Sequence record: OR352948.1
DNA length: 64,000 bases
Reading direction: 5' to 3' (one strand)
From: Escherichia phage AV118
The position numbers were made by a program, and so were the translations under genes. Of this stretch, positions 11,135-55,602 are shown one piece after another. Position 1 is the stretch's first letter. Every line of letters starts with the position of its first letter. Below the pieces are notes generated by a model. It did no database searches. It had not been told where the DNA came from and saw only the letters and a program-made list of their open reading frames with translations.

Positions 11135-11821
11135 TTAGAAGTCGTGAGTAGAATCGGCTTCCATCGCAATAACATAACTTACTTGAGAGCTTTCAAACTT
11201 GGCTGCAACTTTATCACCAGCTCCCCACAACATTACTTTATAGTTACCTGGCTGGATTTTCATATTAGCCATATTGATTACGAAGTTAAAGTTGTTAGAA
11301 CCATCATAATCGGTAAGAGTCAAAGAATACTTAGGACGAGTTAGTCCTGAATCTTCAACTTTATTATAGCCATTGATAACAATTTTACCATCTTTATTTG
11401 TAATAGCAATTGTATCAATCTGAAGACCACGTGAAACTCGAAGCAATTGTTGAAGGTCTTCAGCTTTAATTTCAGTAATCACAGAAGCTACTGGGAATTG
11501 AATTGGCTTATTAGGAAAAACAATTGTGCTCTTGTCAGCGGCAGGCCAATAAACTGTGGAACGTGTATCTGCAATTTTAATATTGCCATCAGTGTGCATT
11601 GAAATTTCAGCATCATCAGACACTAGACTCAAAATGCTTAAGAAGCTATTCAAATCATAAAGTGCTACGTCAAAATCAATTTCATCAGAGATATTTGCTT
11701 CCGCATAAGTGGTGCCATTAACTGCACGAGTCATAATAAATTTACCTTGACTCAGCAGAATGCCAGAGTTAATAGAAGCGAAGTTTTTCAGAATATTTAC
11801 GGTTTCACGGCTAAGTTTCAT
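11135..11821 (-). CDS. 45: sliding clamp
   Basis: 228-aa ORF; sequence and size match T4 gp45. Confidence 0.95.
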   Translation of the reverse strand: MKLSRETVNILKNFASINSGILLSQGKFIMTRAVNGTTYAEANISDEIDFDVALYDLNSFLSILSLVSDDAEISMHTDGNIKIADTRSTVYWPAADKSTIVFPNKPIQFPVASVITEIKAEDLQQLLRVSRGLQIDTIAITNKDGKIVINGYNKVEDSGLTRPKYSLTLTDYDGSNNFNFVINMANMKIQPGNYKVMLWGAGDKVAAKFESSQVSYVIAMEADSTHDF

Positions 11822-12708
11822 TTAGGTTTCCTATTAGCATAATAATTTGTCCAAGACCGGATAGCACCTTGGTATGATTCATCATTAAAACCATGCTGAA
11901 TTGCATGTTTTCTAAATGTAATATAACTTGGTTTTCCTAAAGCAATCCACAATTCCTTTAATTTTTGTTCATGAAATATCCATGTACCTCTAGCTTTAGA
12001 TTTTCTGAATTTATCCTTAAATTCTTTGGTTGCATTTCTTTTCGAAGCTGCGATAGAGGCCTTTGCTCTATTTTCAGGTTTAGACCAATACAATGTTTTA
12101 GATATTTTTATTTTATCTTTAACATTAGGAGAATTCATTATATCTTTAAATTTTAAAGCAAAATCTCTATCGCTAAACATTTTTTTAGAAAGAATAGAAA
12201 CTTTCTCTCTTCGTTCTTTGGTCCAATATGTTTTTTGAAATTCTCTAATTGCGTTTAAATGATTCTCCGACAATTTGCAATTTTTTCTAACACCGACGTA
12301 ATCTTCGTTTATTTCGTTTTTAGAAAGTTTTACTATTTTGCCTGTTTTTAAATTTTTATACGGTGCATATCCTTTAGCTGATATTCTAGACTTCTCGTTA
12401 GCATAAGCCTTATTAAAATATTTTTCATTTGAAACGGCTTTAACATTGAGTTGGAATAGTCTTTCTATTCTTCTAGGGTCTAATGTGGTTTCGCCTAAAA
12501 TTTTTACAGAATATTCGCCTTGGTCTATTAATCTGGTATATAAAGGAGAATACGAGGAATTAACACTACCGGTATATATTTTACCGGTAGAATCTTCAAT
12601 AATATCCTTTCCATTAAAATGACACGAAACTTTAGAACCTATATAATAACACGGGTATTCATTTTTAATCTCACGATTATAAAAGGTTATAAGATATATT
12701 AAATTCAT
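11818..12708 (-). mobile_element. GIY-YIG homing endonuclease gene (Seg-like), free-standing between rpbA and gene 45
   Basis: 296 aa from ATG 12708; N-term LIYLITF...YYIGSK; basic HTH-like C-terminus; paralogous to ORFs at 16570 and 23522. Confidence 0.6.
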
Positions 12709-12713
12709 AATTA

Positions 12714-13130
12714 TCAAGCAGCAACCATCTGCTTTTTAATAGTTTCAGGCAGTGATTCAATATATTCTGGAATTTTAGAAGCAACAATTTCGCCAGCTGC
12801 AATTAGTTGTTCGTCGGCATCAACACAGTAGGAATCTTCCAGACGCTCAGAACCGTCTTTATCAAGAACGATTTTTGCGCCAGCTTCAATAGAATCGTTA
12901 TAGTGCTTACGCATCAGATGAATCCACATATCAGATACATCGTTATCAATAAAACCATAAATCATAAAACGAGTTTCTTGTGGCAAAGATTGGAGTTTTT
13001 TAGCACTTGCGTCATCACAATGCAGGACCCATGCTTTACGAACACGATTATGGTTATGTGGGTTAGCGTCAGTACGGATAGAAGTAACTTTCAGATCAGC
13101 AGCAGTGAAACCTTTAGCAGTAGTAAACAT
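12714..13130 (-). CDS. rpbA: RNA polymerase-binding protein RpbA (by synteny)
   Basis: 138-aa ORF between gp46/45.2 and gp45 region; start uncertain. Confidence 0.5.
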   Translation of the reverse strand: MFTTAKGFTAADLKVTSIRTDANPHNHNRVRKAWVLHCDDASAKKLQSLPQETRFMIYGFIDNDVSDMWIHLMRKHYNDSIEAGAKIVLDKDGSERLEDSYCVDADEQLIAAGEIVASKIPEYIESLPETIKKQMVAA

Positions 13131-15554: not shown

Positions 15555-16573
15555 TGTGTTGCCTCAATATAAAGTTCGTTGGAATATTTGACCAGCGCTT
15601 CTCTGTCTTCATCTGAGATATCTGGAATCGCGTCAATATATTCTTTAATGATATCTTGAAGTGATTTAATCTCGATTTCCTGGTCGTCATCAGATTCAAC
15701 ACTGTTATCAACTTTAGAAACCATACGAAGAGAGTGAACTACTTTTTCAAGTTCAGATTCAAACTTAGTCAACTCTGAATCAATTTCTGATACTATAACA
15801 CGTACGGCTAGATTAGTATAATCAGAATAATTGATTTTGCCTTTAAATGGATAAGTGATTCGTCGATGCCATGTTGTTTCATTAGGAATAAATTCCATAC
15901 GTTCAACATCAGTGTCAAATACCCAGAATCCGCGAGGGTCGTTCTCATCACCTGCAGTAAGGGTCCATGGTGTCCCAATATATTTGACGTTAGCAGCTTC
16001 AGAGATTGTGTGGAAGTGGCCAGACCAGACTTGTTTATAGGTCTTTAAGAAATCAGGTTCAAGCCCATGAGACTTCATTCCTTTATAGAAATAGAAGCCA
16101 TTTAATTCCCAGTGCCCAACACAATACGCTGCAGAAGAAGTCTTGATGTGCTCTAAGATTTCACCTGTATTTTCTTCACACATCCATGGAATCAAATCAA
16201 TCAAGCACCCATCAAAATCTACTGTAGTTGGCTTATCATAAATTATTACGTTTTTACGATGGCTCAATAATTCTTGAACAGTGTTAGGATATAAGGTTGT
16301 TTTATAAAAGAGATCATGATTCCCAAGTATTGTATGGACTGTTATACCAGCGGCTTCCACCAAATCAAACATTTCACGCGTGAATTCCATACAACGTTGT
16401 GTGGTGTGGGCTCTGACATCAAATGTATCACCATATTGAATCCATGTTGTTATTCCATTTGCGACGGAATAGTCGATCATTTGTCTGAAACCGTCACGTT
16501 GTATAGCTTGAATCCAATCGTCGTCTTTTTTGACGCCTAGATGCAAATCGCCTATATTAAGTATTTTCATCAC
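15551..16573 (-). CDS. 47: recombination endonuclease subunit (Mre11/SbcD-like phosphoesterase)
   Basis: 340 aa; ILNIGDLHLG, GNHD metallophosphatase motifs. Confidence 0.95.
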   Translation of the reverse strand: MMKILNIGDLHLGVKKDDDWIQAIQRDGFRQMIDYSVANGITTWIQYGDTFDVRAHTTQRCMEFTREMFDLVEAAGITVHTILGNHDLFYKTTLYPNTVQELLSHRKNVIIYDKPTTVDFDGCLIDLIPWMCEENTGEILEHIKTSSAAYCVGHWELNGFYFYKGMKSHGLEPDFLKTYKQVWSGHFHTISEAANVKYIGTPWTLTAGDENDPRGFWVFDTDVERMEFIPNETTWHRRITYPFKGKINYSDYTNLAVRVIVSEIDSELTKFESELEKVVHSLRMVSKVDNSVESDDDQEIEIKSLQDIIKEYIDAIPDISDEDREALVKYSNELYIEATQ

Positions 16574-17373
16574 ATACCTTTAAATTTGGAGTAAATTATA
16601 TTGTGGTACGATATATCAGGAAACCCTTTATCGACCGCAATTTTTCTAAACTTATTAGGACTTATTTTACCACACTCCATCCATAATGCAAACAACTCGT
16701 CAAAATGCTCATATGCTGGACCTCGACGAGCTTTTGACACAGCAGCACTTATGCGAGCCTTTTTCTCAGAATCAAGGTTTTTAAGAGAATTACTTATTTT
16801 ATTTTTTTGCTCTTCTGAATTGAAGGTGCCTTTTTCCCAGCCTAAAGGTTGGCTTCCTTCATGGAACATTTTTCTTGAAGTTCCATTGGTATACCATATT
16901 TTACCTTTATTGTGCCCTGATGCTTTATATTTTGGTGAGCGTCCTTTTATAAATCCTTCAGGTATAGTAGGAGCAAATGTTTGTTCAAGGGTTTCTGGGT
17001 TATACGAATGTATGTTATTTTTGGCGTTATGAGACCCATATAATGGGTGATTTTTACCAGAAACATCACGCCCAAAGAAACCAGTTGGTGATGCCAAAGA
17101 CATATTCATATACAAAGGATTTTTATGAGCTTGAACTCTAATTTGATAGTCCTTTTCCACCTTTAAAGCTTCTTCTCGTGTTGGATGTTCGCTCAAAATA
17201 CAAGAATCAAACAACGTAGGATTTTCTAAAAGTTCTTTGTTATAAATTTTACGATAGGCTTTAGATAGAATAGTACCATGATACCCGTTTAAATGTTTTT
17301 CTAAGCTAGTCGAACCTATGTAAAAAGGTGGTAGCTTATCTCCAGAATAAATTGTCAAATAGACTATAAACAT
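16570..17373 (-). mobile_element. GIY-YIG homing endonuclease gene (Seg-like) at the locus where T4 carries alpha-glucosyltransferase
   Basis: 267 aa from ATG 17373 with SD AAAGGAGA; VYLTIYSG..FYIGST; NUMOD3-like GKNHPLYG and GHNKGKIW repeats. Confidence 0.65.
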
Positions 17374-17427
17374 ATATTTCTCCTTTGATTTAAGGAGATT
17401 ATAACACGCCTTTAATGAAGCGTAAAC

Positions 17428-17456
17428 AAAAAAAGGAAGCACTAGGCTTCCTTTTG
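17428..17456. terminator. bidirectional intrinsic-terminator-like hairpin (A7-GGAAGC-loop-GCTTCC-T4)
   Basis: Inverted repeat flanked by A-run and T-run. Confidence 0.5.
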
Positions 17457-18018: not shown

Positions 18019-18234
18019 TTATCTCATTAAATTAAAATAAAAACGTCCGTCCTCTTCAATACAGAACTCATACTCAACCGGAGTCCCATTTATCGAAAAT
18101 AACACGTCATGTGGGTTCAAAGGGTCGATGTCAAAATTAATTTTAAATTCACGACCCAACAGTTTTACCAAATAAGGGATTGCTTCGTCAAAAGGTTCTT
18201 CTAAGTAGTTAGAGATGTCAATTGTCATCCTCAT
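18019..18234 (-). CDS. hypothetical protein
   Basis: 72 aa from ATG 18234 (MRMTIDIS...), ORF-track N-terminal extension overlaps gp55. Confidence 0.45.
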
Positions 18235-18793
18235 ATAAAAAATCCAAACTAGGCGAATCGCTAACAACTTCCTTCTTTTCAGCCCCAGGAGCTTTATAAG
18301 CGGATTCTTCATAATGCGTCATTTTATCGTAGATGTCTTGAATAAACGTTTCATCTACCAACGCTACCATATCATCGTCATGACTGTCGTAGACATTATG
18401 AACGAAGTAACTATATTTCTTTGCAACTTCCTTACGTTCTTTTTTGATACGTTGGACAAAAGCATTAAAACAAGCTCGAGTTATGTATGCATGTGGGTTA
18501 TTGTACTTAGTTTCGTCGAAATTATGAAGTCCCTTAATAGAGGCTTCAATCCCATCTGCAATCATCTCCTGCTTCCAAGACTGGGTATATCCTGAAAAGT
18601 TGAAACGTTTGGACAGGCCTTCGGCGATAAGCATAATTGCTAAACCGATGGTATCATTCTGACGAATAATTTTGTTTGGGTCTTTATTATTTAAGAGCTC
18701 CTTTTTCCACTCGATTATAGCGGCGAGAAGCTCTTTATTATTCACATAGTTATTTTTAGGTTTTTGTTCAGTCATAAGTACCTCTTGGCTCAA
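18218..18793 (-). CDS. 55: late-transcription sigma factor
   Basis: 191 aa; sequence and size match T4 gp55. Confidence 0.95.
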
Positions 18794-21717: not shown

Positions 21718-23531
21718 TGGTGTTTAACCCTATGCATGATTTCTTTATTTTTACCGAGATTAAATCCGCGTTCGTTCGGATTTCCCAAATAACCGCATGT
21801 TCTTCTTATGGTGTTCATCTTTTTAGGATCAGTTTCTCCACAGATAGAACAAACAAATCCGTTTTCAGTAGGAGTCATTTCATGGGTACTTCCACATGTA
21901 AAACATTTATCTACTGGCATATTAACACCAAAATAATCTAAATGTTGTGCAGCATAATCCCACACGGCCTCAAGTCCTTTTAAGTTATTTTTCATATCAG
22001 GAAGTTCAACATAAGAAATGTGACCACCTGTCGCAATGAAATGATATGGCGCTTCACGAGAAATCTTTTCAAACGGAGTAATATTTTCTTCTACTGAAAC
22101 GTGGAAACTGTTAGTGTACCAGCCTTTATCGGTAACATCTTTTACACTTCCATATTTTTCTGTATCGAGTTTACAGAAGCGATAACAAAGGTTTTCAGCA
22201 GGAGTCGAATATAAACTAAAAGCAAATCCAGTTCTTTCGGTCCACTGCTTAAGATGAGCATTCATTTTAGTTAAAATTTCTTGCCCAATATCACGACCGA
22301 CAAGAATATTCAATTCGTGAATACCAATGTATCCTAAAGACACTGAACTTCTACCGTTTTTAAATAACTCAATTATGTCGTCATCAGGTTTAAGACGAAC
22401 CCCGAATGCACCTTCTTGGTAAAGAATAGGAGCTACAGTTGCTTTAACACCCTTTAAAGAACTAATTCTACACATCAAGGCTTCAAAACACAGATCCATT
22501 CGTTCATTGAATAATTCAACAAATTTCTGTTCATTGAACTGTGTTCCAATATAAGAATCTAATGCGATACGAGGAAGATTCAGTGTTACAACGCCGAGAT
22601 TATTACGACCGTCAAGAATTTCATTTCCAGTTGAATCTTTCCATACGCTCAAGAAACTACGGCAACCCATCGGAGAAACTGGAACTGAAGAACCGGTAAT
22701 AGCTTTATTATTCTTAACTGAAATAATGTCAGGATACATTCTTTTGCTTGCACATTCTAACGCAAGTTGTTTAATATCATAGTTTGGATCATCTTTATAA
22801 AGATTAACACCTTCTTCAAAAAACATAACAAGCTTAGGGAAAATAGGAGTTATTCCATCACGTCCAAGGCCTTTAATGCGGTTTTTAAGAATTGCCTTCT
22901 GAATCATTCGTTCAGTCCAGTCAGTTCCTGTACCAAATGTAATTGTTACAAAAGGTGTTTGTCCGTTTGAACTAAAGAGAGTATTTACTTCATATTCATA
23001 AGCTTGGAATGCATCGTATACATCTTTTTCTGTTTTAGATTGAGCATAATTCAACGCATCAGCGATTTGCCATTTTTCTGCATCCTCAATATGTTTTGCA
23101 TAGGTGCGTTTAACATAAGGAGAAAGTACTTTATCTACATTAGCAAAAGTCGTTCCGCCGTATTGATGGGAAGCAACCTGTGCAGTAATTTGTGCCATAA
23201 TTGCAGTAGCAACACCGATTGATTTAGGAGTTTCAATCTGTGCATTACCAAGCTTAAATCCATTCTCAAGCATTCCTTTTAAATCTACTAAACAGCAATT
23301 AGTAAAAGGCAATGATATACTGTAATCTAAATCGTGAAAATGAATTAATCCGACATTATGAGCATTTACAATATGGCTCGGAAGAATACTACAAGCGATA
23401 TGTTTAGAAACAATACCGGCCATTAAATCTCTTTTTGTTGGAAAGACACGAGAATCTTTGTTGGCATTTTCGGTATTTAATTCTTTATCTTTATTTGAAA
23501 TAAAATTTAAAACATCTTTCTCTAAAGACAT
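21714..23531 (-). CDS. nrdD: anaerobic ribonucleoside-triphosphate reductase (class III)
   Basis: 605 aa; C-terminal glycyl-radical motif RRTCGYLG; uninterrupted ORF. Confidence 0.95.
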   Translation of the reverse strand: MSLEKDVLNFISNKDKELNTENANKDSRVFPTKRDLMAGIVSKHIACSILPSHIVNAHNVGLIHFHDLDYSISLPFTNCCLVDLKGMLENGFKLGNAQIETPKSIGVATAIMAQITAQVASHQYGGTTFANVDKVLSPYVKRTYAKHIEDAEKWQIADALNYAQSKTEKDVYDAFQAYEYEVNTLFSSNGQTPFVTITFGTGTDWTERMIQKAILKNRIKGLGRDGITPIFPKLVMFFEEGVNLYKDDPNYDIKQLALECASKRMYPDIISVKNNKAITGSSVPVSPMGCRSFLSVWKDSTGNEILDGRNNLGVVTLNLPRIALDSYIGTQFNEQKFVELFNERMDLCFEALMCRISSLKGVKATVAPILYQEGAFGVRLKPDDDIIELFKNGRSSVSLGYIGIHELNILVGRDIGQEILTKMNAHLKQWTERTGFAFSLYSTPAENLCYRFCKLDTEKYGSVKDVTDKGWYTNSFHVSVEENITPFEKISREAPYHFIATGGHISYVELPDMKNNLKGLEAVWDYAAQHLDYFGVNMPVDKCFTCGSTHEMTPTENGFVCSICGETDPKKMNTIRRTCGYLGNPNERGFNLGKNKEIMHRVKHQ

Positions 23532-24343
23532 AATTCTAATTTATCCTTTTGAAATTCTTCGTCTAAATATGGGTTCCAACCCATTTTAAACCTTTTGATG
23601 AAATTATCAATTCTAAATTTCGGTAAATTTAACTCCGCAAAAATAGATGATTTACTTTTAAAATCTGGACCTAAATAATCATATAAAATTTCTGCGTATT
23701 TTAACCATAATATATAAGTACCAGATTTAATTGCTCTAGGAGTTTTCCAAGGTTTTACGCCGTACATCGGATTTCCACTTCCTTTATGCCTGATAGAAGA
23801 TGAAATTCCAATTTTAATTTTAGCTTCCTTTGTGTGCGAAAATCCATGATGTGGATTTTCTTTCCAGTATTTTTTAGAAGCTTCTGATATTTTCTTTCTG
23901 GCTAAATTAGTATGATGCTTTCCATAAAATCCATGATTTTTACCTTTATTACGATTTCTTTTAATCATGGTTATTGATTGCTTTTCTCTAGTTTCTTTAG
24001 AAGGAGAAACACCGTACGTTGTAAATTGACCATTAGCATATGCTAAATTAAAATACTCTTTATTCCATATATCTTTTTCTATATTCTTTTGAAATTCAGC
24101 TTCAATGCTAGTTATTTGTTCATCTCCGACTAATTGAAAATATAATATTTCAACTTTCGGTGTTTCTTTCAACAGAGCTTTTTGAAATTCGGAAGATGAC
24201 GAAGACGAATAATAAAATTTACCATTTTTATCAATAATATTCGTTCCGTCAAAAGTGCAATTGGTTTTACTTCCAATATAATAATATGGCGGGGTTTTAG
24301 CATTAATTCTACTAATAAATGATAGTTTATATACTACATTCAT
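23522..24343 (-). mobile_element. GIY-YIG homing endonuclease gene (Seg-like), free-standing between gene 49 and nrdD
   Basis: 273 aa; VYKLSF..YYYIGSK; NUMOD3-like GKNHGFYG, GSGNPMYG; paralog of 11818 and 16570 ORFs. Confidence 0.65.
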
Positions 24344-24813
24344 TTTAAACTCTTTCTAAGCTGCTTCTTAAATGAAGCTATTAATTGTGTTTTGGTGTCA
24401 GATTCATTATATTCAAATCCTCTTTGAAGCATCTCGGCCATCATTTCCTCTTTTCCTAAACGAGAAAATTCCTTTGATTTATCTCCAACGAAGTTAGGGT
24501 GAATATTATTTTGGGTGTAATCGGATTTTAAATAAGTAAGTAAATTTTCTAACCATTCAAGATAATCAACGCCTTGTCCCTTTAAACCAGAGCGATTAAA
24601 TTTATGTTTCATTTGACCTTCTGCAGCATTGCAGAGATTACAAAGCAATCCACGTACCTTTCCTGCTTTTGGTCCATTTAATTCATGGTCATGATCGAGG
24701 TGATTAGCTTGAACATCAGGATTTAGTTCTCGTTGGCAAATTAAGCATTTACCGTTTTGTGCATCATAAAATTTCTGTTTTTCTTCTTTATATAATTTGC
24801 CAGTCAATAACAT
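24340..24813 (-). CDS. 49: endonuclease VII (Holliday junction resolvase)
   Basis: 157 aa; Zn-binding CLICQ...HLDHDH...CNLCN; sequence matches T4 gp49. Confidence 0.95.
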   Translation of the reverse strand: MLLTGKLYKEEKQKFYDAQNGKCLICQRELNPDVQANHLDHDHELNGPKAGKVRGLLCNLCNAAEGQMKHKFNRSGLKGQGVDYLEWLENLLTYLKSDYTQNNIHPNFVGDKSKEFSRLGKEEMMAEMLQRGFEYNESDTKTQLIASFKKQLRKSLK

Positions 24814-24819
24814 AATAAA

Positions 24820-24852
24820 ACCCTTACCTTAAATAGATAAGGGTATTTATTA
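24820..24852 (-). promoter_or_regulatory. hairpin sequestering gene 49 SD, preceded by late-promoter-like AATAAATA
   Basis: ACCCTTA...TAAGGGT inverted repeat 7 nt upstream of ATG; AATAAATA on minus strand at 24852..24845. Confidence 0.4.
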
Positions 24853-24855
24853 TTT

Positions 24856-25341
24856 TCAAGTATTGTAAAACATTTGATGCAATCGCTTATATTGCCGAAT
24901 CATTTGGTCAGAAAAAGAAATTTGAGTTTCAAGCCATTCAATGTATTCTGCGGCAGCTTGCATCAGGTTACCTTCATAGCCATCGTTATTTTCTTGTGCA
25001 GCTAATTTAGCTAATGCGTATGAAATACGTTCACCTTGAAAATCGGCTTTAGGCTTCTGAACAACTTGATTAGTTCGCTCTACAACTTCTTCAATTTCGC
25101 CATTTTCGACTGATTCAGTATTCCACAAACACCAATACGTAATTGGCTTATCGTAGATGTTAATAATCTTTCCATCAGAAAGTTCAATTTCAATAATTCC
25201 AGTATCAGGTTCTATATCATCTTCACATTCTTTTGCAAGTTCACGAACTTTAAAGACAGTACCTGCACTAAGTTCCGGCCAGTAATTACACAGCCCTGTA
25301 TCAGCACGATTAATTCTAAACCACTTATCTACTGTAATCAT
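24856..25341 (-). CDS. hypothetical protein (pin-like by position and size)
   Basis: 161 aa from internal Met; lies where T4 pin lies; no motif support. Confidence 0.4.
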   Translation of the reverse strand: MITVDKWFRINRADTGLCNYWPELSAGTVFKVRELAKECEDDIEPDTGIIEIELSDGKIINIYDKPITYWCLWNTESVENGEIEEVVERTNQVVQKPKADFQGERISYALAKLAAQENNDGYEGNLMQAAAEYIEWLETQISFSDQMIRQYKRLHQMFYNT

Positions 25342-25464
25342 GTCCCATCTCCATATCAATTAAGTCATTTATCGTTGGTTCATTATACACCGTTTCTTCA
25401 TCAGTGTAAACCGGTTCTTCCGGCTCTGGCTCTACAGTTTCCCATCTAGCCGCCCACCAAGGTT

Positions 25465-34369: not shown

Positions 34370-34672
34370 TTAGATAGATGTAGGCTCTAATTTTATTTTC
34401 ATGAACTCGGCAAATTGTCTGGCAGTTTTTATGCCTTGTTCATGACATTCAAATGCATCATCACAGGGACTATTTTTGTAATGCTTTGCCATATACTTAT
34501 AGAATTTTTCAGAATTCTCGACATTTTGAATTTCAAACAAAGTATATACGTTTTTAATCCCTGATTCCATAAAGTTATCAAAATATGGGTCGATATATGC
34601 AGTACCAACGATAGGAGTTGTTGCTGCAAAAAACCCCAGCATCGCCATGACAGCTATCGCTCTTAAGGCCAT
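34370..34672 (-). CDS. rI: lysis-inhibition regulator RI-like periplasmic protein
   Basis: 100 aa; N-terminal signal/anchor MALRAIAVMAMLGFFAA; position next to tk as T4 rI. Confidence 0.6.
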   Translation of the reverse strand: MALRAIAVMAMLGFFAATTPIVGTAYIDPYFDNFMESGIKNVYTLFEIQNVENSEKFYKYMAKHYKNSPCDDAFECHEQGIKTARQFAEFMKIKLEPTSI

Positions 34673-34684
34673 ATAGGCCTCCTG

Positions 34685-34897
34685 TTAATTTTGGCCAGTA
34701 TTTATTTTTCGCCTTTGGACGGCCTTAACATCTGTGAGGTATTTTTCCAGCTTGCGCTTGCGTGTATAATCAGCTTTAGAACCAGTTTGACGGATATCCT
34801 CGTTTAAATGAGAAATAGAATGTCCTAATTCTCTTCGGATTTCATCCAATTGGGTTACAGTAAGATTACGAAGTTGTCTTTCGTTTAATTGCTGCAT
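34685..34897 (-). CDS. hypothetical protein
   Basis: 70-aa ORF between tk and rI. Confidence 0.5.
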
Positions 34898-34924
34898 ATA
34901 TACCTCTTGGTTAGATATTAGTAT

Positions 34925-35506
34925 TTATAACAACCCTGTCAAATCGTTCCAATGCTTCCGGCATAATGACACATATCTATCGGTATCACCAATTTCAATT
35001 TGACTGCCATCTGTAATTGGAAGTCCGTCTTCCGTGACTCTAGCTACCATTGTGGCCTTTTTACCACAATGACAAACACCTTTAAGTTCAACAAGTTTAT
35101 CGGCAATAGCCATTAATGCTTGAGAACCTTCAAATAGATTACCTTTAAAATCTGTTCGTAGTCCATATGCCATTACCGGCACATTGTACACGTCAACAAT
35201 ACGACTAAGTTGATACACCTTTTCAGTAGTTAAGAACTGAGCTTCGTCAACAAATACACAATGAATATCCTTTTGTGCTGCAGCCCATTTATAAAATTCA
35301 AAGATATCCATGTCTTTTGTAATTATATTGGCATCCTGACGAATACCAATACGAGAGACTATTTCACCTTTTGAATCACGAGTATCAATAGCCGGTTTAA
35401 GAACTAATACACCCATGCCACGTTCTTTATAGTTATGTGCGGCAGTAAGTAATGAAGCAGACTTACCAGCGTTCATAGCGGCATAGGTAAAAATTAAACT
35501 AGCCAT
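34925..35506 (-). CDS. tk: thymidine kinase
   Basis: 193 aa; P-loop NAGKSASL, Zn-binding CHCGKKA...C motifs. Confidence 0.95.
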   Translation of the reverse strand: MASLIFTYAAMNAGKSASLLTAAHNYKERGMGVLVLKPAIDTRDSKGEIVSRIGIRQDANIITKDMDIFEFYKWAAAQKDIHCVFVDEAQFLTTEKVYQLSRIVDVYNVPVMAYGLRTDFKGNLFEGSQALMAIADKLVELKGVCHCGKKATMVARVTEDGLPITDGSQIEIGDTDRYVSLCRKHWNDLTGLL

Positions 35507-40636: not shown

Positions 40637-41050
40637 TTAGTAAATTGATTTACCATAGTATTTGTACCAAGTCGGACGTTGAGCAATTTTTTCATCTAAG
40701 CGTGCTTGACTTATCGCAATGGACGCTTCAGACGGGACGTAATTATTACGAAATTCTATAGGAATGTCGGAAATATCCTGGACAGTCGTGTCCTTGATTT
40801 TGAAACCACGTTTCAAGCATTCAGCGATTAGTTCGATTTGACGTAAACGTAAAAATTCGAGTTTGTCGTAAAAGAATGTTACGTGACCTGTGCCTAAGAT
40901 AAATGTTGGAGAGATTTTAAAATCCTTTACACGTTTACCGTTTTGAACATGTTTACGGACTGCACCAAATACGCGTGGTAATTCACGATACTCAGCCATA
41001 AGATGTTGGTCGGTCAGTTCAGAAACAAGTGTTAAATTGATACGGGTCAT
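40637..41050 (-). CDS. denV: endonuclease V (pyrimidine dimer DNA glycosylase)
   Basis: 138 aa from ATG 41050 ([12 protein letters not shown]...), SD GGAGGAAA; sequence matches T4 DenV. Confidence 0.9.
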
Positions 41051-41390: not shown

Positions 41391-41875
41391 ATATACGCTT
41401 TCCAAGTTCCTGTTTTAAATGTTGAGATTACGCGTTTCGCGCGATTAGGTGTCTGACGATACCATTTAGATTGGGCTAGATTTACTGCCGCTTCGTCCCA
41501 ACGTTTCTGTTGAAGCATACGAAGAGAATTAGTAAAACCGGCGACGCCTGCTACACCCATTTGGAAGACCATATTGACCAATGCACATCGACGAACCGCA
41601 TCTAAAGAATCATATACCGGTTTAAGTTTAGCATTACCCAAGATTCCGCGAACGGCTTTATCAACGTCTTCATTAAATAGCTTTTCAGCCTCATCGAGGG
41701 TAATTGTACCGTTGCATTTACGTCCGATCATTCTGTCAAGTTCAGCTTTAGCTACGGCTAAAGACGGGTTCTTTGTTACTAAATGGCCTATGCCAATCGT
41801 CCAAAAGCCTTCAGTGTCTTTGTATAAAGTTAGTCTAAGACCTTCGTCATTACGAAGCATTTCAAATATATTCAT
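41387..41875 (-). CDS. e: endolysin (T4 lysozyme)
   Basis: 162 aa from ATG 41875 (MNIFEMLR...); catalytic E11/D20 region [14 protein letters not shown]; matches T4 e. Confidence 0.95.
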
Positions 41876-41877
41876 AA

Positions 41878-41907
41878 TACCTCCCACGTTTATAGGAGGT
41901 ATTTATT
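41878..41907 (-). promoter_or_regulatory. hairpin sequestering the endolysin SD, with late-promoter-like AATAAATA at its 5' side
   Basis: TACCTCC-loop-GGGAGGTA inverted repeat; SD GGAGG in 3' arm 5 nt before ATG. Confidence 0.5.
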
Positions 41908-41909
41908 AC

Positions 41910-42368
41910 TTATAGGAGGGTAGTGAGCACCTTATATAATGATTTGCCCATTACATATTCCCATTGAGAAGGTTTAATTAAAGCGAATGCATCAAATTCA
42001 GGAATCTGACGTCCGTCTGGGAATGTATGATAGGAATTACAAACACTGTTTCTGAATTGCTCGTGCTCTACAGGGATGGTATATAGGAACAGATGAATAT
42101 TCTTATTATCTGAGTAATGATGTTCACCTAGGTCTTTCAGGAAGGCAGGGTCATATTGTGTAAACCCAGTTTCTTCTTCGCATTCACGAATAGCGGCTTC
42201 AATAGGAGATTCGCCAGGTTCGACATGGCCTTTAGGAATATCCCACCGATGAGCTAAAGAACCTTTAGGACGAGAACCAGTTACACGCCCCATGAATAAT
42301 TCTTTATCTTCGGTAAGGAAAATAATACCGGCTGATAGTTCTTTCACTTTATTTTTCTTACTCATCAT
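41910..42368 (-). CDS. nudE: Nudix hydrolase
   Basis: 152 aa; Nudix box GHVEPGESPIEAAIRECEEETG. Confidence 0.9.
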   Translation of the reverse strand: MMSKKNKVKELSAGIIFLTEDKELFMGRVTGSRPKGSLAHRWDIPKGHVEPGESPIEAAIRECEEETGFTQYDPAFLKDLGEHHYSDNKNIHLFLYTIPVEHEQFRNSVCNSYHTFPDGRQIPEFDAFALIKPSQWEYVMGKSLYKVLTTLL

Positions 42369-42609
42369 CTCGGTCCCATGATTTGGCCATTAATTCGGAC
42401 ATAAATTCTTCAATGCGCGTTTCTTTAGATGGACTTTCACTATTAGAGACCGCAAGTTTGTAATCTGCAATAGGACAGAACATATCAAGGTCCATATTAA
42501 GGTCGTCTTTGATTTTTTCTTCTGACACATCTTTATCGTATGTGTACAGATAACTATCACATGATTCTGATTTAATGTAAATTGCTATACTCATCTCAAA
42601 TTCCTGCAT
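42358..42609 (-). CDS. hypothetical acidic protein
   Basis: 83-aa ORF. Confidence 0.45.
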   Translation of the reverse strand: MQEFEMSIAIYIKSESCDSYLYTYDKDVSEEKIKDDLNMDLDMFCPIADYKLAVSNSESPSKETRIEEFMSELMAKSWDRDDE

Positions 42610-44091: not shown

Positions 44092-44121
44092 ACTATAACA
44101 TAATCCTATAATTATGTAAAC
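44092..44121 (-). promoter_or_regulatory. T4-early-type promoter in palindromic element
   Basis: GTTTAC + TATAGT inside GATAGGACTA-type inverted repeat. Confidence 0.45.
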
Positions 44122-49414: not shown

Positions 49415-49457
49415 GTTGCTTTTCCTAAGTTAATTAACTTATCTATTTATTATTATG

Positions 49458-50161: not shown

Positions 50162-50238
<77 letters not shown>

Positions 50239-50338: not shown

Positions 50339-50413
50339 TGGTGGCCCTGGCTGGTTTCGATCCAGCTACCTATCAGTTATGAGCTGACAGCTCTCCCATT
50401 GAGCTACAGGGCC
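50339..50413 (-). tRNA. tRNA with anticodon CAU (elongator Met or Ile2/lysidine)
   Basis: Manual cloverleaf: acceptor GGCCCTG/CAGGGCC, D-stem GCTC/GAGC, anticodon loop CTCATAA, T-stem GCTGG/CCAGC, encoded CCA. Confidence 0.75.
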
Positions 50414-52819: not shown

Positions 52820-53554
52820 TTACCTTAAGATTGTTTCAATTTTAGAATAAAGCTCTTCTAAAGAGCCGTCGTTTGTAATAACTAAATCGCCTTCTTCAAT
52901 AGGCAACCCAGCTTCTGTAATATGTTTATCTGTGGATTCCGTACCAGAGCGAACCACATGAATAACTGTAGCACCCATCGCTCTAGCGGTTTCCATTTCA
53001 TGGACTTGGCGTGTATCGGTCACAACATAGTAATCGAAATCACTTCCAATATAATCCATATAGTTTAATGCAAAAAGTTTAACCCAATACATACGGTCAA
53101 ATAAATTAACGACAACATCCGTACCGAGGGCTTGCATAAGACGGCGGATTGACCATGTGTCGTTGATATTATTTATAGCTTCACGCAGGGCTTCATATGG
53201 TTTAATATCTAGATACGAATATCCACCTTCTAACGATGATAATACTTTAACATTATTAATTGGTAAATATTGACTTTGCAAATAAATTAGCGCTTCTTCC
53301 AATAATTCAATAACATCCAACTTATTGATATTTAATGGCGTTTCACGGTCATATCCGATACCTTCAAAGTATTCGTATTTCAACTCTGTGAATACATCAG
53401 GATTTTCAGCATGCCTACGTCCCCAGGCTATTGCTAGAGAGTCTTTAATTGGATATGCTAATTGGTATTTTACGGATTTAAAGTTTGAATTGATGTAATC
53501 AGCAGTAGTGTCTTTACCACTACGTTTGATGCCACTTAAAAAGATTAGCTCCAT
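52820..53554 (-). CDS. 1: deoxynucleoside monophosphate kinase
   Basis: 244 aa; P-loop GIKRSGKDT; matches T4 gp1. Confidence 0.9.
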   Translation of the reverse strand: MELIFLSGIKRSGKDTTADYINSNFKSVKYQLAYPIKDSLAIAWGRRHAENPDVFTELKYEYFEGIGYDRETPLNINKLDVIELLEEALIYLQSQYLPINNVKVLSSLEGGYSYLDIKPYEALREAINNINDTWSIRRLMQALGTDVVVNLFDRMYWVKLFALNYMDYIGSDFDYYVVTDTRQVHEMETARAMGATVIHVVRSGTESTDKHITEAGLPIEEGDLVITNDGSLEELYSKIETILR

Positions 53555-55579: not shown

Positions 55580-55587
55580 TATAAATA
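55580..55587 (+). promoter_or_regulatory. T4 late promoter TATAAATA (gene 53)
   Basis: Exact TATAAATA about 50 nt upstream of gp53 start. Confidence 0.6.
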
Positions 55588-55594
55588 GTATTAT

Positions 55595-55602
55595 TATTTA
55601 TA
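55595..55602 (-). promoter_or_regulatory. T4 late promoter TATAAATA (gene 4), divergent from the gene 53 promoter
   Basis: Exact TATAAATA on minus strand about 27 nt upstream of gp4 ATG. Confidence 0.6.

Follow-up and report, generated by a model that had tools for sequence, protein, structure and literature searches.

In bacteriophage T4, genes e, soc, 49 and I-TevI carry inhibitory structures in their translation-initiation regions that sequester the Shine-Dalgarno (SD) sequence and/or the AUG codon (Uzan & Miller 2010, PMC3014915). Long early transcripts of e form such a structure and yield roughly 100-fold less lysozyme; the transcripts that originate from two late promoters are devoid of the 5' strand of this structure and are translated well (PMC3014915). 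Close T4-type relatives possess similar e leaders, with a late promoter located in the region that encodes the 5' strand (PMC3014915). The mechanism was described for e by McPheeters et al. (1986, NAR 14:5813; cited via the review PMC3014915) and for gene 49 by Barth et al. (1988, Genetics 120:329; cited via PMC2988022 and PMC3014915). Homing-endonuclease genes employ the same device (Edgell et al. 2010, PMC2988022, where Barth 1988 is cited for gene 49 and McPheeters 1986 for e).

The late promoter of T4 occupies positions -13 to -6, and in RB69-type phages, the -13 position is A or T (Nolan 2006, PMC1524935). Among the 50 T4 late promoters listed by Geiduschek & Kassavetis (2010, PMC2988020), 32 are perfect and 9 have A(-13), which is the commonest natural variant (PMC2988020). 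In RB69, a hidden Markov model (HMM) predicted 31 late promoters, none of them near e (Nolan 2006, PMC1524935).

Here we examined a 64,000-nucleotide stretch of DNA from Escherichia phage AV118 (OR352948.1), hereafter the window, which encompasses an e gene of the RB69 lineage and a gene 49 of the T4 lineage. Judging from their sequences, the leaders of both genes are very probably copies of the T4 device by which translation is confined to late transcripts. We observed in the window the hairpins, the geometry of motif and stem, a contrast in energy between the long and short RNAs, upstream genes on the same strand, promoter-like sites and gp55 (Table 1). Both leaders share with the T4-type class the sequestration of the ribosome-binding site (RBS), an accessible RBS in the short RNA, an early unit upstream on the same strand, a gp55 encoded by the phage and compensatory changes in relatives; a putative late promoter with its predicted start within the hairpin is likewise found at e and at 49, by sequence geometry only.

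The phage is RB69-like (Mosigvirus), and the features at e and gene 49 are both encoded on its minus strand. At the DNA level, the e region is 99.9% identical to that of Escherichia phage AV109 and 98.5% identical to that of RB69. Across a 25-kb stretch of the window, phages AV114 and AV109 provide 91% coverage at ~97.5%, and the e region of these phages is an RB69-type (Mosigvirus) match. Many Tequatrovirus gp49 proteins share 100% identity with the gp49 of the window. A patch of ~2 kb that includes a homing endonuclease gene, 49 and pin is Tequatrovirus-like and is embedded within the Mosigvirus backbone. The stop codon of nudE is separated by 6 nt from the 5' arm of the e hairpin, and that of pin by 2 nt from the gene 49 hairpin. 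The gp55-like protein would be the candidate reader of the AATAAATA motifs found in both leaders.

Table 1. Features of the e and gene 49 loci in the window, with the late sigma factor gene
Feature	Coordinates	Strand	Basis
Gene e, T4-type endolysin, 162 aa	41387..41875	-	Phage_lysozyme, E 7.5e-14
e hairpin 3' arm GUGGGAGGUAUU, contains SD GGAGG, stops 1 nt short of AUG	41876..41887	-	folding
e hairpin loop AAAC	41888..41891	-	folding
e hairpin 5' arm AAUACCUCCUAU, with anti-SD CCUCC	41892..41903	-	folding
Predicted late +1 of e (+/-2 nt), inside 5' arm	41894	-	from motif at -13..-6
Late-promoter-like AATAAATA upstream of e	41900..41907	-	motif scan; TATAAATA consensus with A at -13
nudE, Nudix hydrolase, same-strand gene directly upstream of e	41910..42368	-	domain match
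Second early-type promoter-like site upstream of e	42553..42581	-	consensus match
Early-type sigma-70 promoter-like site, TTTACA-17-TATAGT with upstream TG	44092..44120	-	consensus match only
Gene 49, recombination endonuclease VII, 157 aa	24340..24813	-	Endonuclease_7 and Endonuc-dimeris (T4 dimerisation domain)
Internal ATG (Met68) of gene 49, preceded by GAAGG SD, outside hairpin	24610..24612	-	window sequence
Gene 49 hairpin 3' arm AGGUAAGGGU-UUUAUUAU, with SD AAGGG (24821..24825) and A,U of AUG	24812..24829	-	folding
Gene 49 hairpin loop AUUUA	24830..24834	-	folding
Gene 49 hairpin 5' arm AUAAUAAA-U-ACCCUUAUCU, U 24845 bulged	24835..24853	-	folding
Predicted late +1 of gene 49 (an A, +/-2 nt), inside 5' arm	24838	-	from motif at -13..-6
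Late-promoter-like AATAAATA upstream of gene 49, identical to that of T4	24844..24851	-	motif scan
pin, PinA protease inhibitor, same-strand gene directly upstream of 49	24856..25341	-	Inhibitor_I24, E 2.4e-48
Early promoter TTTACA-17-TATAAT, equivalent of T4 'early promoter P1', upstream of pin	25382..25410	-	consensus and position
gp55-like late sigma factor	18218..18775	-	phrog_234 'late sigma transcription factor', E 3.7e-68

On the minus strand, the e leader reads ...cta TAA gtAATAAATACCTCCTATAAACGTGGGAGGTATT ATG, with the ATG at 41875 and the SD GGAGG at 41880..41884. The hairpin (41876..41903) consists of 12 bp and has an energy of -16.3 kcal/mol (z = -4.8); none of 200 dinucleotide shuffles was as stable, and the probability that the SD is unpaired in early-type RNA is 0.00. 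The RefSeq annotation of RB69 starts e at Met6, as opposed to the SD-preceded ATG 41875 in the window; the layout of hairpin and SD supports this ATG as the true start of e, which is useful for annotation. As a candidate terminator, the e hairpin was rejected because it lacks a U-tract.

The last four bases of the AATAAATA motif upstream of e are the first bases of the hairpin 5' arm, so placed that transcription from the predicted +1 would eliminate 9 of the 12 arm pairs from the late RNA. We calculated the ensemble cost of opening positions -13 to +6, with 40 nt of coding sequence included, and found that it drops from 17.4 kcal/mol in the early-type RNA to 4.1 kcal/mol in the predicted late RNA. 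In the latter, the SD is only ~21% unpaired owing to weak pairing with the early codons; the cost of 4.1 kcal/mol is nevertheless ordinary among the genes of the window, despite the ~79% of weakly paired SD. The leader contains a single late-promoter-like motif, in the A(-13) form, so that late expression of e in this phage would rest on one non-consensus motif, because the second, proximal promoter of T4 is absent (TATAAACG). We treat the lack of an RB69 e site in the HMM list as a matter of limited HMM sensitivity because the same study gives the -13 position as A or T. Both early-type promoter-like sites upstream of e are candidate origins of read-through RNA into this gene, and the scan for terminator-like sites detected none between these sites or nudE and e.

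The leader of gene 49 reads ...TGA aaAUAAUAAAUACCCUUAUCUAUUUAAGGUAAGGGUUUUAUU AUG, with the ATG at 24813. Its hairpin (24812..24853) comprises 18 bp, of which 10 form the inner stem and 8 the outer stem on either side of a one-base bulge, with an energy of about -18 kcal/mol (z = -4.1); again, none of 200 shuffles was as stable. Initiation at the predicted +1 would eliminate 14 of the 18 arm pairs, and the ensemble cost of opening the RBS decreases from 14.5 kcal/mol in early-type RNA to 4.2 kcal/mol in the predicted late RNA. Thus calculated, the late opening costs of both leaders are close to the window median for all genes. The P1 promoter in the T4 record Y00122 (locus positions 291-319) maps exactly to window positions 25410..25382, and transcripts from its equivalent in the window would run through pin into gene 49. 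The internal Met68 ATG corresponds to the position at which the nested short product of gene 49, annotated in T2 as 49_1, begins.

The initial annotation had reported a hairpin and a late-promoter-like motif upstream of e and a matching layout at gene 49, and both are present where it placed them, on the minus strand. It described the e hairpin as a 7-bp TACCTCC/GGAGGTA stem with the SD in the 3' arm; the SD is indeed buried, and the 7 bp proved to be the core of a 12-bp stem. The motif is positioned, as had been proposed, for a late start inside the hairpin, with the predicted +1 falling in the 5' arm (Table 1). For gene 49, it gave the same layout at 24820..24852; this layout is present, and the hairpin is in fact longer, extending over 24812..24853.

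The mechanism that we propose follows that of T4. Early in infection, distant upstream sigma-70 promoters would give rise to polycistronic RNAs that reach e by way of nudE and 49 by way of pin. In these RNAs, the full leader would fold into the stable hairpin, the 3' arm of which would bury the SD (and, in 49, also part of the AUG), so that the 30S subunit could not bind the early RNA, and neither lysozyme nor full-length endonuclease VII would be made. On the early RNA of gene 49, only the nested product that starts from Met68 would be accessible. At the late stage, RNA polymerase with gp55 would recognize the AATAAATA motif that abuts or overlaps the 5' arm and start transcription ~6 nt downstream, inside the arm. 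The late RNA would thus be devoid of the anti-SD half, the hairpin could not form, and translation would ensue. For the late 5' ends, the activity of the promoters and the block of early translation in this phage, we infer from the T4 literature.

The number of motifs is not informative: AATAAATA occurs 8 times in the window, against 11.8 expected from shuffles, and TATAAATA occurs 5 times, against 8.75 expected, that is, neither is enriched. Motif counts at or below the shuffle expectation were therefore dropped as evidence, and placement and conservation were used instead. There are 13 WATAAATA sites in the window, and only those at e and 49 have, immediately downstream, a strong hairpin reaching as far as a start codon. 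When the region from -50 to +15 was folded around each of 109 putative gene starts, and the starts were ranked by the MFE cost of opening the RBS, e (-16.3 kcal/mol) and gene 49 (-16.0 kcal/mol) came third and fourth, compared to a median of -3.6 kcal/mol. In a search of Rfam, two tRNAs were the only matches in the window; none of its families corresponds to the e or 49 leaders.

For comparison across T4-like phages, we collected e leaders from 11 lineages (Mosig-, Tequatro-, Dhaka-, Marfa-, Kagamiyama-, Kanagawa-, Gapriver-, Moon-, Jiaoda- and Tegunavirus, and Nanhuvirus); the motif and chimera tests covered ten of these, with Nanhuvirus examined separately. The locus of Aeromonas phage asfd_1h was left out of the e set because it is probably gp5 or mis-registered. 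All ten tested lineages share the same order of elements, namely T, A or G followed by ATAAATAC, the anti-SD arm, the loop, the SD arm and the ATG. The 11 e leaders, which come from different genera, all retain the ATAAATAC core unchanged, and the A(-13) or G(-13) forms of the motif are found in 8 of the 10 other e leaders compared. The gene 49 leaders represented 10 lineages (T4, Mosig-, Dhaka-, Karam-, Winkler-, Jiaoda-, Braga-, Krisch- and Pseudotevenvirus, and the window). In 9 of these, A, T or C followed by ATAAATA adjoins the 5' arm, the exception being JSE (Krischvirus), with TTAAATA. Altogether, 20 of the 21 leaders (11 of e and 10 of gene 49) carry an unchanged ATAAATA, at a distance of 0-1 nt from the stem, and TAAATA is present in all 21. 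In several leaders, the motif lies outside the stem or is unpaired and yet is kept; therefore, it is conserved for its own sake, which argues for a DNA element recognized by a protein.

The stems behave differently from the motif. Those of gene 49 are unrelated in sequence (CCCUUAUC/GGUAAGGG, GUUCAUCU/GAGGUGAAC, CUCUUAUCU/GAGGUAAGAG, CCUCUAUA/UAUAGAGG, AUGACACC/GGUGUUAU), so that there are at least five different stem sequences, all of which pair. The MAFFT alignments of the leaders are not structure-aware and put the stems out of register, and for this reason, we used an alignment-free chimera test, in which the 5' and 3' halves of the leaders were swapped. For gene 49, the native leaders had a mean energy of -13.6 kcal/mol compared to -7.55 kcal/mol for the chimeras, with chimeras between stem families falling between -2 and -9 kcal/mol. 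The contrast was smaller for e (-13.7 kcal/mol for native leaders and -11.0 kcal/mol for chimeras) because the SD and anti-SD fix the core of the stem. The chimera contrast is covariation, and since the stems co-vary, the structures are under selection. In each of the phages compared, a start at the predicted +1 would remove between 5 and 14 arm pairs (the e leader of EcS1 was not counted for lost pairs, its +1 having been placed on an earlier, overlapping TAAATA).

These comparisons bear directly on the other explanations that can be offered for the two leaders. Motif counts at or under the shuffle expectation are what one would see if the pairing and the placement of the motif arose by chance in A/T-rich intergenic DNA; nevertheless, with z values of -4.1 to -4.8, no equally stable structure in 200 shuffles, two sites near the top of 109 gene starts and a layout kept with compensatory stems across genera, the probability of this is negligible, and we regard chance as excluded by the comparative data. 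It is unlikely that the gene 49 hairpin functions mainly as an intrinsic terminator or attenuator of early pin transcripts, with the masking of the RBS being incidental. A permissive scan does flag positions 24844..24820 (a stem of 10 pairs, including 4 G-C, followed by the tail TTTATTATGT), a 'terminator' is annotated under this region in the related records fPS-2, G29 and G10400, and the tail in the window contains one more U than that of T4. The U-tract (UUUAUUAU), however, is interrupted and pairs within the outer stem, whereas leaders of other genera that lack a U-rich tail (CC31, ending in GAACUAUG, and KpV477, ending in AGAGUAUG) retain both the SD masking and the promoter motif. Moreover, the read-through early RNA of T4 carries the 49 hairpin (Barth 1988, as cited in PMC3014915 and PMC2988022), and the e hairpin has no terminator features. 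Termination by the gene 49 hairpin could be, at most, a second function alongside masking.

Two further explanations would dispense with the promoter activity of the motif. One casts the hairpins as RNA-stability or processing elements that shield the GGAG of the SD against RegB, or serve as 5' or 3' stabilizers after RNase E cleavage, next to a motif that is no promoter. The GGAG in the e SD is double-stranded in early RNA, and RegB is known to cut GGAG in early translation-initiation regions (PMC3014915), but this scenario leaves unexplained both the invariant ATAAATA, which 20 of the 21 leaders keep within 0-1 nt of the stem (in some of them unpaired), and the constant anti-SD in the stems; given also that the effect in T4 is translational and roughly 100-fold (PMC3014915), we consider it very improbable. 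According to the other, also quite improbable, late expression of e would rely on late transcripts from further upstream rather than on AATAAATA, with the hairpin opened by ribosomes that terminate on nudE, that is, by translational coupling. The position of the nudE stop, just 6 nt ahead of the 5' arm, is compatible with such coupling, as are the loss of the T4 proximal promoter in the window and the non-consensus motif, which the HMM did not call in RB69. Yet, A(-13) promoters are common in T4 (9 of 50, PMC2988020), A(-13) or G(-13) forms occur in 8 of the 10 other e leaders, and the T4 gene 49 promoter is itself AATAAATA. Furthermore, the minus strand has no perfect TATAAATA for several kb upstream, the nearest being at 53170, and early e translation is strongly repressed in T4. 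Under the preferred reading, the T4-type device, ribosomes that stop at the nudE and pin stop codons could still briefly melt the 5' arms and thus allow some early translation.

The mechanism itself is already known: this is the published T4 device, seen in a close relative, and the finding that the classic device is intact in an RB69-like phage is in itself of little import. It would prevent premature lysis and delay the production of full-length endonuclease VII until packaging. What is new, as judged from the sequences, is an RB69-lineage e leader in which the stem is stronger and only one promoter-like site, of the A(-13) form, is present, a gene 49 leader with an extra U, and the conservation of the cassette, with co-varying stems, in many more genera than were listed in the 2010 review. 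The analysis also places putative late-promoter sites that the earlier HMM scan of RB69 missed. The comparison provides a clean example of the co-evolution of a promoter with an RNA structure, an invariant ATAAATA being found beside stems that differ and co-vary.

At 4 of the 14 early-promoter-like sites in the window, an anti-SD arm lies in the spacer between the -35 and -10 boxes, and the -10 box is in the hairpin loop; the ATGs of the four genes concerned are at 41050, 37920, 34268 and 48826. A broader hypothesis, which we put forward tentatively and with considerable doubt, is that the promoter-in-stem arrangement is a general rule of this phage group, comprising an ancient, co-evolving late cassette at e and 49 in at least 18 genera of Straboviridae and an analogous sigma-70 early version. 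If this were true, then, at those 4 of the 14 sites, translation would be possible only from RNA that starts at the gene's own promoter. We found no description of the early-promoter version in the literature searched, the scope of which did not extend to the older T4 literature.

The match to the known T4 mechanism that the initial annotation suggested is borne out by orthologous genes, aligned leaders, T4-like drops in opening cost and the reviews of the T4 systems (PMC3014915, PMC2988022). Two perfect TATAAATA boxes are present in the T4 e leader (TTTTATAAATACCTTCTATAAATACTTAGGAGGTATTATG); the opening cost of this leader changes from 15.7 kcal/mol in the early RNA to 4.5 kcal/mol for the distal promoter and 0.7 kcal/mol for the proximal one, and that of T4 gene 49 from 16.1 kcal/mol early to 3.3 kcal/mol late. 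The drop for e and 49 of the window is 10-13 kcal/mol, as in T4, so that, by computed opening costs, the window leaders would be expected to behave like the experimentally characterized ones of T4.

The e gene and its leader are orthologous to those of T4: in both phages, nudE is the upstream gene, the leaders align, and ATAAATAC is followed by the anti-SD arm and then by GGAGGUAUU-AUG. The two leaders differ in that the window stem has 12 bp and a 4-nt loop, whereas in T4 the stem has about 9-11 bp and the loop is larger, and in the first motif, which reads AATAAATA in the window and TATAAATA in T4. The second, loop-embedded TATAAATA of T4 corresponds to TATAAACG in the window, and therefore, the late RNA with an 8-nt leader that is made by T4 is not expected here. 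At gene 49, the similarity is closer still: the region is 97.8% identical to that of T4, with the same AATAAATA motif, the same inner stem (CCCUUAUCU/AGGUAAGGG), the same P1 early promoter upstream of pin and the same internal Met68 start. Unlike in T4, the leader contains one extra T (UUUU compared to UUU), which converts the 2-nt internal loop of T4 into a 1-nt bulge, lengthens the U-rich tail and adds pairs that reach into the AUG.

Beyond e and 49, soc, I-TevI, I-TevII, I-TevIII, segB and mobE of Aeh1 resemble the present leaders in that a late gene is part of an early or middle unit, its RBS is hidden on the read-through RNA and the late start falls inside the structure (PMC2988022). These are different genes with non-homologous leaders, and I-TevI is additionally autorepressed at an operator that overlaps its promoter. 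Riboswitches and RNA thermometers, too, mask the SD within an intramolecular helix; in contrast to these, the e and 49 leaders involve no sensor, and the choice is between two RNA lengths set by the promoter rather than between two folds of one RNA.

In the RefSeq annotation of RB69 (NC_004928, 65200..65673), the T4-type lysozyme gene e starts at a codon corresponding to Met6, but 15 nt upstream lies an ATG (41875 in the window) that is preceded by a Shine-Dalgarno (SD) sequence, opens the reading frame MNIFEM..., as in T4, and marks the base of the conserved hairpin. For these reasons, the upstream ATG is likely the true e start. None of the 31 RB69 late promoters predicted by Nolan (2006; PMC1524935, supplementary file 5) is located upstream of e.

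The segment 23400..25500, which contains gene 49, pin and a homing endonuclease ORF, shares 97-99% identity with Tequatroviruses (T4, FL08, AV121), whereas only about 81% identity to Mosigviruses was detected, covering gene 49 alone; the surrounding 25 kb are Mosigvirus-like. This patch looks like flanking DNA co-converted by the homing endonuclease. Two further ORFs with similar N-termini probably encode additional free-standing seg-type endonucleases. Across the window, Rfam matches at the gathering threshold were confined to two tRNA genes. The gene 49 leader contains UUUU (24817..24820, minus strand) in place of the UUU of T4, Mosigvirus mar005P1 and Dhakavirus. Owing to the extra U, the 2-nt internal loop of the T4 leader is replaced by a 1-nt bulge, the pairing reaches into the AUG, and the terminator-like tail is longer.

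Features mapped in the window
Feature	Position	Strand	Remarks
ORF	11818..12717	minus	N-terminus like that of 23522..24343 (...YYIGSK.../...FYIGST...)
ORF	16570..17442	minus	as preceding
Homing endonuclease ORF	23522..24343		phrog_7504, NUMOD3
Early-promoter hairpin	-35 box 41107	minus	ATG 41050 (denV-like)
Early-promoter hairpin	-35 box 37977	minus	ATG 37920
Early-promoter hairpin	-35 box 34324	minus	ATG 34268
Early-promoter hairpin	-35 box 48883	minus	ATG 48826
WATAAATA	34922..34929	minus	20-30 nt upstream of SD-preceded ATG
WATAAATA	34699..34706	minus	as preceding
WATAAATA	49444..49451	minus	as preceding
Perfect TATAAATA	55580..55587	plus	SD and start codon follow
Perfect TATAAATA	55595..55602	minus	SD and start codon follow
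tRNA gene	50165..50238	minus	
tRNA gene	50342..50413	minus	

A second class of hairpins masking the ribosome-binding site (RBS) is built around four sigma-70 early promoters on the minus strand, in the order GTTTAC (-35), TT, anti-SD arm (for example, CUCCUC), -10 box in the loop (for example, TACTAT), SD arm and ATG. The spacer-to-RBS duplexes have energies of -11 to -19 kcal/mol, matched by 0-3 of 200 shuffles, and none was found at the 10 remaining early-promoter-like sites of the window. The RBS would be masked in read-through RNA, and RNA from the gene's own early promoter would lack the 5' arm. The denV leader of Enterobacter phage CIP9 has the same layout, with a different but compensating stem. 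No description of this arrangement was found in the searchable literature.

With an SD and a start codon downstream of each box, the two TATAAATA boxes on opposite strands, 8 bp apart, look like a divergent late-promoter pair. The three WATAAATA sites, none of which has an upstream-arm hairpin, are probably ordinary late promoters within the early region; at gene 34370..34672, an SD/AUG hairpin is positioned downstream of the predicted +1.

In T4, the loop of the e hairpin embeds a second late promoter, TATAAATA, whereas the lineage of the window has TATAAACG at this position (41887..41894, minus strand), and the promoter is also missing in the other eight non-Tequatrovirus lineages compared. 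The e leader of Cronobacter phage LPCS28 (Nanhuvirus) forms an RBS-masking stem of 14 bp (-25.5 kcal/mol), with TCTAAATA within the 5' arm instead of ATAAATA ahead of it, and this motif resembles the late consensus CTAAATA reported for Aeh1.
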